From: Escherichia coli O157:H7
GTDB taxonomy: Bacteria; Pseudomonadota; Gammaproteobacteria; Enterobacterales; Enterobacteriaceae
DNA: 64,000 nt
NCBI RefSeq assembly: GCF_013167455.1
Contig: NZ_CP038328.1
Direction: 5' to 3' (one strand)
A program made the position numbers. Below, one piece after another: positions 45,001 to 48,000 of this stretch; within the stretch, counting starts at the first letter, position 1, and each line of letters opens with the position of its first letter.

Positions 45001-48000
45001 AACTTATTGACCAGCACATACAGTGGCACCGATTGCCCCACCGCCAAAATCGCCTCACGGACCTCTTCATCGGAGATCGATTTCAGTTGCGTATAATCCA
45101 GCACCGCCAGTACCGCCGAGGCGCGTGCCAGCTGCTGGTTAAGCATTTTTTGCAGATGCGGTTGCCCGGCTTCATTTGGCCCGGGGGTATCCAGTAACGT
45201 CAATTGACCGGGATAACTTTCCAGCCCCGCCAGATGGACAAACTCCACTTCAATCACGGGAATATGCTCAATGGCGGCGTAAGCAGAAAAAGGAAAATCG
45301 ACGTCCAGCGCCTTCGCCAGTCGCACCAAATCATTCAAACTTTTCAGACAATGAAAAATAGGCTGGGCACCCAGATAATATTTTTCGAAAGCGACGCCAT
45401 TTTCGATCCGCTGCATAAGCGCACGCATATCTTTATCTATTTCCAGCACATCGGTCAGATGCTTAATATCGCAATCACGCAGGCGCTGTTGTAATTTTTG
45501 AATTAAACAATCGATTGGCGCGACATGTGAAAAATGCAGTACCGGTTCCTTTTGGCCGGGCGTATGGCGAATAAGCGTCGGCAGCGCAGTCATTGGGCGA
45601 TTGCGATTAGGCAGTACCTCCGTACCAACAATGGCATTAATGGTGGTTGATTTCCCTGCTTTCATGGTACCGACAATCGCCAGCACCATTTCCAGTCGGG
45701 AAATTTTACGCAACTCATTATTCAGCATCGCGTGACGCTCGGCGATATTAGGCTGACTCCAGGGTAAAGCCAGTTGTGGCGCATCGTCTCCGGGTACAGA
45801 GAGAGGCATTTTTTCCAGTAACTGCAACTGTTGGCGAGAAAGCTGTAACAGCCGTTCAGCCTCCTGACTTAACTCATACAGGGTCTGTGTGTACATAGAA
45901 AATTCTTCCTTAAAGCAAATTTTATTACTTTTATTTAGCCAGATTGTTTTTGAGTTCTGTTTTCGGCTTTTATAATTACTGCAAGAAATAATTTTATATT
46001 TAGAGTGTTGTTTTTTATTAGAATAAATAACATCTTCCGATACGTTTAAAACGTCAGAAAGATAAAAATATCATGTGAATAAAAAAAAGAACAAGTAGAG
46101 CATTAACCTTATCTTAAATAATAAATGGAGGCAAAAAGATTATTTTCTTTTTGCGTTTCCTTTCAAATGAAAACGATCGTCGTCTAAAATCAGCAGTACC
46201 CCCGACAAACTCAGGGATTTTGTGTATAATTGCGGCCTTTTTCGGCAATCTGCCGTTTTTTGGCGCTTTTGCCCTGCTGACTTTTGAGGAAATCCACATG
46301 TCATTACCACACTGCCCAAAATGCAACTCCGAATACACTTACGAAGATAACGGCATGTACATCTGCCCGGAATGTGCCTACGAATGGAACGACGCAGAAC
46401 CTGCACAGGAAAGCGACGAGCTGATCGTTAAAGATGCTAACGGCAATCTGCTGGCTGACGGCGACAGCGTTACCATCATTAAAGATCTGAAGGTGAAAGG
46501 TAGCTCTTCGATGCTGAAAATTGGCACCAAAGTGAAAAACATCCGCCTGGTTGAAGGCGACCATAACATCGATTGCAAAATCGACGGTTTTGGTCCGATG
46601 AAACTGAAATCTGAGTTTGTGAAAAAGAACTGATTGTATTGTGATCGGTAAGCCGGATAAGGCGTTTACGCCGCATCCGGCAACAGTGCCAGATGCCTGA
46701 TGCGACGCTCGCGCGTCTTATCAGGCCTACAAATTCCCGCACCCTCCGTAGGCCGGATAAGGCGTTTACGCCGCATCCGGCAACAGTGCCGACTGCCTGA
46801 TGCGACGCTCGCGCGTCTTATCAGGCTTCCCTCTCATCTGTATAAATTTCGAACTACACTTAACTGGCTTCTCTTAACTGAGGTCACCATCATGCCGTTA
46901 AGTCCCTACCTCTCTTTTGCCGGTAACTGCTCCGACGCGATTGCCTATTATCAACGTACGTTGGGCGCTGAACTGCTCTATAAAATCAGCTTCGGCGAAA
47001 TGCCAAAATCAGCGCAGGACAGCGCCGAGAACTGCCCTTCCGGAATGCAATTTCCCGATACCGCCATCGCCCACGCCAATGTGCGCATTGCCGGAAGCGA
47101 TATCATGATGAGCGATGCTATACCGTCAGGAAAAGCCAGCTACTCCGGTTTTACGCTGGTGCTCGATTCGCAACAGGTCGAAGAAGGAAAACGCTGGTTT
47201 GATAACCTTGCCGCTAACGGAAAAATCGAAATGGCCTGGCAGGAAACTTTCTGGGCGCATGGCTTTGGCAAAGTCACCGATAAATTTGGCGTACCGTGGA
47301 TGATTAATGTCGTCAAACAACAACCAACGCAATAATCCGCCGGGAGGCCCGCCCTCCCGCACTGTCATCGAATTCCCGTTAACTCTTCATCTGTTAGTCA
47401 CTTTTAATTAACCAAATCGTCACAATAATCCGCCACGATGGAGCCACTTTTTTAGGGAGGCTGCATCATGCAAACGATTATCTGCGTCGAACAACTGAGC
47501 AAAACCTTCAACCAGCATCAGGCGCTGCACGCGGTTGATCTGAATATCCATCATGGTGAAATGGTGGCTCTGCTTGGGCCGTCCGGTTCCGGCAAATCCA
47601 CCCTTTTACGTCACTTAAGCGGTTTGATTACCGGCGATAAATCCGCCGGTAGCCATATCGAGCTGCTGGGCCGCACTGTCCAGCGCGAAGGCCGCCTGGC
47701 CCGCGATATCCGCAAAAGCCGCGCCAACACCGGCTACATCTTCCAACAATTCAACCTGGTGAATCGCCTGAGCGTACTGGAGAACGTGCTGATTGGCGCG
47801 CTCGGCAGCACGCCGTTCTGGCGCACCTGTTTTAGTTGGTTCACCCGCGAGCAGAAACAGCGCGCATTACAGGCGCTGACCCGCGTCGGTATGGCGCACT
47901 TTGCGTATCAGCGTGTTTCCACGCTCTCCGGCGGCCAGCAGCAGCGTGTGGCGATTGCCCGCGCGCTGATGCAGCAGGCGAAAGTGATTCTCGCTGACGA

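Follow-up and report, generated by a model that had tools for sequence, protein, structure and literature searches.

A two-unit BIME-2 array between yjdM and yjdN of Escherichia coli O157:H7 is the orthologue of K-12 REP325

The window analysed here is the whole stretch of 64,000 nucleotides from the E. coli O157:H7 contig NZ_CP038328.1. Its plus strand carries the two genes of the yjdMN operon. yjdM (phnA; 46298..46633, 111 aa) is present in the ORF listing and in RefSeq, matches Pfam PF03831 (9e–35) and PF08274 (1e–16), and has a repeat array as its 3' UTR. The downstream gene, yjdN (phnB; 46892..47335, 147 aa), is annotated in RefSeq and matches Pfam PF06983 and PF00903. The RefSeq annotation was taken from an O157:H7 record that is 100% identical across positions 46300-47340. 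A promoter-like plus-strand site upstream of yjdM, CCGACA-17-TATAAT (46202..46230; 10/12 matches in a consensus scan), is a candidate for transcribing the array. The non-repeat leader of yjdN (46831..46891, plus strand) holds the block ACTACACTTAACTGGCTTCTCTTAACTGAGGT, which is kept across genera in the outgroup alignment. A small hairpin is predicted by folding over its Shine-Dalgarno sequence, and a promoter scan of the leader found no sigma-70 consensus promoter.

Two further long ORFs are listed here, 46479..46742 on the minus strand (87 aa) and 46700..47335 on the plus strand (211 aa). The preliminary description of this DNA gave both with exact coordinates and dismissed them as artefacts of reading through the repeat, and we agree. 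The repeat-derived parts of both ORFs have no Pfam match, and the 64-codon extension upstream of yjdN (46700-46891) matches no family. In RefSeq, yjdN begins with the ATG equivalent to 46892, and the minus strand carries no annotation there. A seven-unit allele of the array, in strain ET76, contains a bogus pseudogene called by PGAP.

A repeat search returned a single family of direct repeats with two copies of 82 nt (46645-46726 and 46745-46826; 94% identity) set 100 nt apart, start to start. The whole array thus consists of two units with a period of 100 bp (46645-46830) and lies entirely inside the 258-nt yjdM-yjdN spacer, the extragenic location of a BIME-2. Compared base by base, the units differ at 5 positions over 82 nt; the three mismatches reported earlier apply to a 75-nt core, where only 46691-46693 differ (AGA versus GAC). 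The order of elements is Y(–), 13 nt, Z2(+), 17 nt, Y(–), 13 nt, Z2(+). Hence the central proposal of the preliminary description, that REP palindromes of alternating orientation form a BIME array between phnA and phnB, is borne out by the repeat search, by matching to Y and Z2 consensus sequences and by blastn-short. The assignment given by the consensus sequences agrees with blastn-short and with Qian 2015, where the K-12 counterparts are described as Y and Z2.

Unit 1 opens with a Y palindrome (46648..46681, minus strand; 32/34 to consensus, 96.7% by blastn-short, predicted hairpin –21.0 kcal/mol) whose tail, GTAAGCC, is a degenerate GTAG. A 13-nt linker, AACAGTGCCAGAT (46682..46694, plus strand), joins it head-to-head to a Z2 palindrome (46695..46730, plus strand; 35/36, 97.2%, predicted hairpin –21.4 kcal/mol) with an intact CTAC tail. 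The tail-to-tail spacer that follows, AAATTCCCGCACCCTCC (46731..46747, plus strand), is the core of a 23-nt, C-rich 'U' spacer (46728-46750; 10 C, 2 G). Its previously given length of 17 bp is exact once the GTAG and CTAC tails are counted, with Z2 ending at 46730 and the next Y starting at 46748. Unit 2 comprises a Y with an intact GTAG tail (46748..46781, minus strand; 33/34, 97.1%), a 13-nt linker, AACAGTGCCGACT (46782..46794, plus strand), and a Z2 (46795..46830, plus strand; 33/36) whose degenerate tail (GGCTTCC, not GGCCTAC) forms the right edge of the array. Typed from their sequences, the linkers differ: CCAGAT in unit 1 is of the 'first-unit' type and CCGACT in unit 2 of the 'internal/last-unit' type.

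Three general searches were blank at this position. Tandem Repeats Finder reported nothing at the array because two copies of period 100 score under its threshold. An inverted-repeat scan with a seed of 9 likewise returned nothing, since the stems (7+4 and 8+5 bp) are broken by bulges. A single degenerate Y/Z pattern had 0 matches because loop lengths vary.

The array is a classical BIME-2 and the O157:H7 allele of K-12 REP325, the source of "naRNA4". In K-12, REP325 consists of six 77-bp Y-l-Z2 repeats with identical U spacers between yjdM and yjdN (Qian 2015). We take the name from the literature, since the feature table of the K-12 RefSeq record NC_000913.3 has no REP feature at this locus. 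Both O157 units, 46651..46727 and 46751..46827 (plus strand, 77 nt each, Y-linker-Z2), match the full length of the Rfam naRNA4 model RF02564 at 97.9 and 105.1 bits (gathering score 59.5), the second in an alignment without non-canonical pairs. The minus strand of unit 1 scores only 52.7 bits, and the six K-12 units score 95-111 bits. However, a Y/Z2 pair that lies between phnD and phnE (49304-49384) and is unrelated also passes the model at 63 bits. RF02564 is therefore not specific for the locus, and a match shows BIME-2 architecture rather than naRNA4 function. Orthology follows from position and shared edges: every allele has the lead sequence TTGTATTGTGA and the downstream leader in the same or nearly the same form.

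The O157 array and K-12 REP325 have in common the locus, flanking genes, strand, 77-nt Y-linker-Z2 unit, 23-nt U spacer and 100-bp period. O157 unit 2 is identical to K-12 unit 6 at 76/77 positions. The alleles differ in size, with six units, 12 hairpins and five U spacers in K-12 versus two units, four hairpins and one U spacer in O157. Moreover, O157 unit 1 is a mosaic, with the left edge and linker of a first unit and the Y loop (GTTTAC) of the internal type. The right edge also differs, being GGCCGCC in K-12 and GGCTTCC in O157; the latter is shared with one-unit alleles, GD33 and TUM20902.

We found no structural difference between the array and the BIME-2 family of the Gilson/Bachellier classification, which is defined by alternating REP and inverted REP with a short linker instead of the long L linker. 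The array is composed of Y and Z2 in alternating orientation with a short linker, sits in tandem and outside genes at a gene 3' end, and varies in unit number between strains. BIME-1 elements (RIP/RIB; Y + Z1 with an L linker, IHF-binding) are likewise inverted REP pairs at 3' ends of transcription units, but they are single copies with Z1 and a long L linker, and the O157 array has neither; no Z1 match was found in the element by consensus matching or blastn-short. An IHF site in the array, one of two binding activities proposed earlier, is rejected. IHF binding is a property of the BIME-1 L linker, the array is of the BIME-2 type, and the IHF consensus WATCAANNNNTTR is absent from 46634-46891, all three of its matches in the window lying elsewhere. 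The other proposed partner, gyrase, stands as a partner of the BIME-2 class, with cleavage documented at other BIME-2 loci.

The preliminary description also expected copy number to vary between strains and suggested a comparison, which we carried out on 59 systematically sampled complete E. coli genomes and on the best 60 of 5,426 complete genomes. Variation was evident. Among the 59 genomes, one unit was found in 32, two in 9, four in 2, five in 5, six in 10 (K-12 included) and seven in 1; none had zero units. Among the best 60 of 5,426, all 55 O157:H7-type records have two units, and the remaining 5 records have one (O55:H7 by label in three, no serotype label in two). One record, Br_112_kylling, is without the locus owing to an unrelated, island-associated deletion of yjdM.

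Unequal recombination between the near-identical 100-bp units, or slippage between them, probably accounts for their gain and loss. The one-unit alleles of CB9615 and 2013C-4465 are an exact recombinant of O157 units 1 and 2 in the two sequences compared. The CCAGAT linker is also found in unit 1 of the K-12, GD33, ET76, CFSAN064036 and 33-6 alleles and in the one-unit allele of LT883142. In K-12 REP325 and the other multi-unit alleles, most U spacers have the O157 sequence and a few depart from it by a single base. The O55:H7 one-unit allele has neither the U spacer nor the unit 2 left edge, and so is not the parent of the O157 allele. By unequal crossover it is derivable from the O157 allele; the O157 allele is not derivable from it. 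The tandem duplication described earlier is therefore correct as a head-to-tail pair but not as a fresh event in O157, which we reject: the two linker types differ and are shared with multi-unit alleles of other lineages, and O55:H7 cannot supply the parent.

At the RNA level, four hairpins of –21 to –22 kcal/mol each are predicted, and the fold of the array region has a z-score of –6.8 versus shuffles. Comparison of 13 distinct variants of the 77-nt unit, drawn from 10 E. coli alleles, shows 0/48 paired and 13/29 unpaired columns to be variable (Fisher P-value = 4e–7), so that all 13 variable columns fall in loops or linkers. This stem invariance could instead come from the REP-associated transposase recognising hairpins in the DNA, or from gene conversion homogenising the units, and not from selection on RNA. 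Like the array, intrinsic terminators place a G+C-rich hairpin directly 3' of a stop codon; the array differs by its missing T-run. The four hairpins are followed by AACAGTG, CTACAAA, AACAGTG and TTCCCTC, and a scan of 46634-46891 found no terminator-like site. On these grounds an intrinsic terminator was rejected. The interval between the array and yjdN contained neither an intrinsic-terminator T-run nor a consensus promoter.

The adjacency of yjdM and yjdN is kept in E. albertii, Citrobacter and Enterobacter. Contig searches with a back-translated YjdM C-terminus gave, among the matches listed, most of which were to unrelated taxa, six enterobacterial outgroups with adjacent yjdN. Directly after the yjdM stop codon each has a different stable hairpin: a Z2 together with a truncated Y, a REP-like palindrome particular to the species, or an intrinsic terminator; in some Enterobacter and Citrobacter relatives, a true intrinsic terminator occupies the array position. 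The presence of a 3' hairpin in every outgroup argues for a conserved need for such a structure after yjdM.

Overall, we consider an RNA 3'-end/stability and attenuation element between yjdM and yjdN to be the best explanation of the array, with a probability of about three in four. Sequence identity, structure, synteny, polymorphism and stem conservation were established here; function has been demonstrated in the literature for the K-12 allele only, and we infer that it may extend to the two-unit allele. The array would be transcribed within the spacer of the yjdM-yjdN (phnA-phnB) operon, each palindromic unit forming an mRNA hairpin of about –21 kcal/mol. Such hairpins would block 3'-to-5' exonucleolytic decay and protect the upstream yjdM message. 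RNA polymerase stopping, or transcripts ending, inside the array would lower expression of the downstream yjdN. Since the O157 allele comprises just four hairpins and a single C-rich spacer, we expect its main action to be that of a leaky, Rho-independent 3'-end and stability element, with weaker attenuation of yjdN than by the K-12 allele.

The K-12 functional data come from one preprint (Harris et al. 2026) on the 6-unit allele, largely under plasmid overexpression. In that work, deletion of REP325 took the yjdM/yjdN mRNA ratio from 35 to 1. With plasmids lacking the array, yjdM mRNA was >160-fold lower. A rise of 8-10-fold was recorded for yjdN. Transcripts ran as a ladder, about 50% of the signal lying in a main band four hairpins long. 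Sensitivity to bicyclomycin was seen with the full 12-hairpin array only, fragments of two or four hairpins being insensitive; since it is confined to the full K-12 array, a Rho-dependent component is not expected in O157. Stabilisation of yjdM depended on context and was seen only with yjdN present, and endogenous yjdM and REP325 RNA in K-12 is very low, at about 1-2 copies per cell. The mRNA-stabilising or terminating hairpins proposed in the preliminary description have experimental backing for the K-12 allele. The broad and seemingly tolerated range of 1-7 units argues against strong selection on the quantitative effect.

REP325 follows the same logic as REP stabilisers in other polycistronic operons, where intercistronic hairpins raise the ratio of upstream to downstream expression. 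At malE-malF, intercistronic REP hairpins reportedly do so by blocking 3' exonucleases. The K-12 element goes beyond such stabilisers: it also behaves as a leaky terminator with multiple steps and, when long, with partial Rho dependence. In O157, the tail of the first palindromic unit begins 14 nt past the yjdM stop codon and its stem (46652) 18 nt past. Liang, Rudd and Deutscher are said to have dealt in 2015 with REPs within 15 nt of stop codons. A secondary statement puts REP325 inside this 15-nt limit. As a side hypothesis, translation of yjdM may be down-regulated by ribosomes stalling at the first REP.

Three other explanations bear on the same facts. The units could be genes for naRNA4-type small RNAs which, together with HU, bridge cruciform REP DNA and condense the chromosome, as proposed for K-12 by Qian et al. 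(2015). Both units match 'Nucleoid-associated noncoding RNA 4' (RF02564) in full length and above threshold. In K-12, discrete RNAs of ~77 nt with HU-binding and DNA-condensing activity have been reported: deletion of REP325 decondensed the nucleoid, naRNA4 from a plasmid rescued it, and bridging in vitro required HU and naRNA4 (Qian et al. 2015). However, the condensation role was not reproduced in a later study that shares an author with the original one. It found no stable HU-naRNA4-cruciform complex, an unchanged nucleoid upon deletion or overexpression of REP325, no REP-REP contacts in Hi-C, and only about 1-2 copies of the RNA per cell. The phnD/phnE pair passes the model as well, so that a match does not show this function, and a range of 1-7 units, with a single unit commonest in our sample, is hard to square with a dosage-sensitive global organiser. 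We regard a nucleoid RNA as very unlikely to be what the array is for.

Gyrase offers an explanation at the DNA level, in which the array is a strong, transcription-independent site of gyrase binding and cleavage, or a topological insulator between yjdMN and the phn operon, and effects on RNA are by-products. Cleavage sites are significantly enriched in vivo in BIME-2 as a class, Y is cut more than Z2, and the signal rises when transcription is blocked; the paper reporting this also cites Espeli and Boccard 1997. The O157 array has the defining Y/Z2 short-linker architecture, but cleavage sites occur in a subset of BIME-2 only, and the loci highlighted are sucC-sucB and tldD-yhdP, not yjdM-yjdN. 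The non-REP intrinsic terminators that stand in its place in outgroups fit an RNA 3'-end role better, and a DNA-level activity would in any case be compatible with one. As the principal role we find it unlikely. Finally, the array could be a selfish or neutral passenger of the REPIN type, kept by the REP-associated tyrosine transposase and unequal recombination and without host function at this site. REP325 is a predicted RAYT-associated REPIN, TnpA-REP cleaves and recombines BIMEs in vitro, and strain variation in BIME-2 copy number is a known trait of the family. Unit numbers of 1-7 reveal no obvious optimum, and the alleles mix edge and internal unit types in the mosaic fashion that repeated unequal exchange should produce. 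Yet deletion of the K-12 allele alters yjdM/yjdN expression and growth, every outgroup examined retains some hairpin after yjdM, zero-unit genomes are missing from the sample, and the two-unit state is uniform among the O157:H7-type records. We regard a passenger without function as very unlikely, too.

We tentatively raise a further idea, which we think doubtful: the number of REP325 units might be a heritable, stepwise 'rheostat' of the yjdM:yjdN ratio, with a Rho-dependent component only in long arrays. If so, the settings would be 2 in O157:H7, 1 in O55:H7, 6 in K-12 and 1 in most E. coli, the much-studied K-12 allele would be an atypically expanded state, and the natural allelic series would serve directly to test how the balance of termination and mRNA protection is tuned by hairpin number.

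Taken as a whole, the preliminary description was essentially right, and what it missed is the REP325/naRNA4 identity. The element is real, ordinary and already known, with two units here versus six in K-12. Its proper label is REP325/BIME-2, neither coding nor a new repeat, and it explains the two spurious long ORFs. REP325 serves as a 'model REP', and claims on nucleoid organisation and 3'-UTR regulation have been built on the unusually large 6-unit allele of K-12. As about half of the sampled E. coli carry one unit and all 55 of the O157:H7-type records two, length-dependent conclusions, partial Rho dependence among them, may not generalise. The natural series of 1-7 units could serve to test this length dependence.

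Between yjdM (phnA; 46298-46633) and yjdN (phnB; 46892-47335) lies a spacer of 258 nt, counted from the yjdM stop codon to the yjdN start, in a stretch (46300-47340) that matches E. coli O157:H7 chromosomes at 100% identity. A repeat search revealed a single direct-repeat family in the spacer, with two 82-nt copies (46645-46726 and 46745-46826, 94% identical, period 100). In each copy, a Y palindromic unit in inverted orientation (46648-46681, 46748-46781) is joined by a 13-nt linker to a forward Z2 unit (46695-46730, 46795-46830), and 17 nt separate the copies. The repeat search and palindrome assignment agree with the preliminary description, which had proposed a tandemly duplicated BIME here, on coordinates, on the lengths of unit and spacer and on the names of the genes. 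Its count of three mismatches is right for a 75-nt core, where all three fall at 46691-46693, but column-by-column comparison of the whole 82 nt gives five. The two ORFs that it regarded as artefacts are indeed present; they lack Pfam support in their repeat-derived parts and are unannotated in RefSeq. An artefact of the same kind is the frameshifted, partial 'hypothetical protein' pseudogene that the NCBI pipeline annotates wholly within the 7-unit array of strain ET76 (398-712 of that locus, L006). Upstream of yjdM, a promoter-like site (CCGACA-17-TATAAT, 46202-46230) precedes a terminator-like hairpin and T-run in the leader (46243-46255, CGGCAATCTGCCG TTTTTTGG); this may be a leader attenuator or a chance occurrence.

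The feature is real and had rightly been read as a BIME array; it is the REP325/naRNA4 locus, which already has a name and a record of experimental study, in its two-unit O157:H7 state. REP325 of K-12 lies between yjdM and yjdN and consists of six 77-bp repeats, each with Y and Z2 palindromes and a linker, set apart by five identical 'U' spacers; transcription runs from yjdM to yjdN and yields naRNA1-6 (Qian et al. 2015). On the plus strand, the O157 array matches the naRNA4 family RF02564 at 46651-46727 (97.9 bits) and 46751-46827 (105.1 bits; gathering score 59.5), while the minus strand of the array scores under the threshold. The K-12 locus gives six matches of 95-111 bits. Dissection of the O157, K-12 and other alleles showed a common lead sequence, 100-bp period (77 + 23) and U spacer, the latter identical in most copies and different by one base in a few; O157 unit 2 is the same as K-12 unit 6 except at one position. 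The element is a BIME-2 (y + z2, short linker, tandem copies, strain-variable copy number) under the definition that Ton-Hoang et al. 2012 quote. The IHF binding that had been attributed to it is a property of the BIME-1 L linker (Ton-Hoang et al. 2012), and no IHF consensus was found in the element. RF02564 picks up BIME-2 units in general, not one specific sRNA gene, and is not locus-specific, since another Z2(-)/Y(+) pair, in the phnD-phnE spacer (49304-49387), also passes the threshold (63 bits, 49304-49384, minus strand). Further REP pairs lie at 54626-54704 (Y(+)/Z2(-), inside the phn operon between phnK and phnL, as judged from inferred gene positions) and at 28123-28217 (Y(+)/Z1(-), BIME-1-like, between convergent yjdF and melB). 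Another Rfam 'sRNA' match, to STnc630 (40819-40984, minus strand, 178.5 bits), coincides with pmrR, an annotated 29-aa small-protein gene just downstream of proP; the aligned sequence includes the ORF start AUGAAAAACCGU, and the 'sRNA' is probably pmrR mRNA.

To find alleles, we queried 5,426 complete E. coli genomes with a 'deletion construct' of 622 nt, in which the 3' part of yjdM is fused to the 5' part of yjdN, so that array length could be read straight from the length of each joined match. Among 59 informative rows, sampled at even steps down the ranking, one unit was found in 32 genomes, two in 9, four in 2, five in 5, six in 10 (K-12 derivatives among them) and seven in 1; none had zero units. 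The strain-variable copy number suggested earlier is thus borne out. Dissection of nine alleles showed that the arrays are made up of whole 100-bp units and that both edges, left and right, are conserved. The two-unit length occurs in 55 of the 60 records that match best (O157:H7, including EDL933, Sakai and 493/89), and the one-unit length in the other 5, three labelled O55:H7 (CB9615, RM12579, USDA5905) and two without a serotype label. In O55:H7 CB9615 and unlabelled 2013C-4465, the one-unit allele corresponds exactly to the left portion of O157 unit 1 joined to the right portion of unit 2, with flanks otherwise identical to O157. Missing from it are the U spacer, the CCAGAT linker and unit 2's left edge, and duplicating it therefore cannot give rise to the O157 allele. 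The reverse step, a single unequal crossover in the shared Y segment, can derive the one-unit allele from the O157 allele. Since derivation runs only in this direction, the O157 array is best seen as a two-unit state of a polymorphic array common to E. coli, not as a new duplication.

Other differences were noted within O157:H7. The phnC gene of near-identical strain PV15-279 is 66 bp longer than in the window (difference at about 47938-47977) and is annotated as 855 nt, versus 789 nt (262 aa) in the window and K-12; this looks like an in-frame duplication polymorphism. In a near-identical O157:H7 record, phnO (about 57087-57522) is annotated as frameshifted, phnE as intact (780 nt), and a downstream sugar ABC-transporter ATPase as having an internal stop codon; the longest ORF of the window's phnO region is 57097-57522 (141 aa, GTG start). 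Elsewhere, a tRNA-Phe gene (10404-10476) adjoins a frameshifted tyrosine recombinase/integrase gene fragment (about 10676-10835), probably a scar left where an island integrated.

All four palindromic units are predicted to form RNA hairpins (-21 to -22 kcal/mol each), and the whole spacer folds much more stably than shuffles do (z-score -6.8). Across 13 distinct 77-nt unit variants, the 13 variable columns all fall in loops, linker or ends, and 0 of 48 paired columns vary (Fisher P = 4e-7). Compensatory covariation is absent from these variants because the stems are invariant. Such invariance points to constraint on the hairpins and would fit selection on either their RNA or their DNA form. 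None of the four hairpins is followed by a T-run, and predictions gave neither a consensus promoter nor a terminator between the array and yjdN. The corresponding spacer of E. albertii (140 nt) has a truncated Y and a Z2 (RF02564, 61 bits), and the 80-139-nt spacers of Citrobacter and Enterobacter carry, in the same place, either REP-like palindromes of their own or a genuine intrinsic terminator. Some hairpin after yjdM is thus kept in position across other genera, which fits a 3'-end role. The yjdN leader block ACTACACTTAACTGGCTTCTCTTAACTGAGGT (46853-46891) is conserved across Escherichia, Citrobacter and Enterobacter, though the preceding sequence is replaced. It has a small predicted hairpin over the Shine-Dalgarno sequence in several species and may serve to control yjdN at the level of translation or transcription.

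Direct functional evidence comes from the K-12 allele only, and it bears out the hairpin-based RNA effects proposed from sequence. Deletion of REP325 lowers yjdM mRNA and raises yjdN about 10-fold, shifting the yjdM/yjdN ratio from ~35 to ~1; in plasmids where yjdN follows, yjdM mRNA is >160-fold lower without the array. With the array, yjdN is about 8-fold lower (Harris et al., bioRxiv 2026). Truncated transcripts from the array form a ladder in which a species of four hairpins dominates (about 50%), and bicyclomycin raises read-through only at the full 12-hairpin array, not at 2- or 4-hairpin fragments (Harris et al., bioRxiv 2026). The nucleoid-condensation model for REP325/naRNA4 is contradicted by the same study, which found no nucleoid-size effect, stable HU-naRNA4-cruciform complex or REP-REP contacts (Harris et al., bioRxiv 2026). 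The array may also be a gyrase cleavage site at the DNA level, given that gyrase cleaves preferentially at BIME-2 elements as a class, a property documented at other loci. A secondary source places REP325 inside the 15-nt distance from a stop codon that has been linked to translational down-regulation; such an effect on yjdM is a possibility.

To the known locus, our findings add a 1-7-unit allelic series in which one unit is commonest, the two-unit state in 55/55 O157:H7-type records among the 60 best matches, the direction of the O55:H7/O157:H7 difference, and the restriction of variation to unpaired positions. By analogy, we infer that REP325 function carries over to the O157 allele, whose four hairpins would still be expected to protect yjdM mRNA and to generate 3' ends. 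With a single C-rich U spacer (23 nt, of which 10 are C and 2 are G) where K-12 has five, this allele would be expected to have a smaller Rho-dependent part and to attenuate less strongly.
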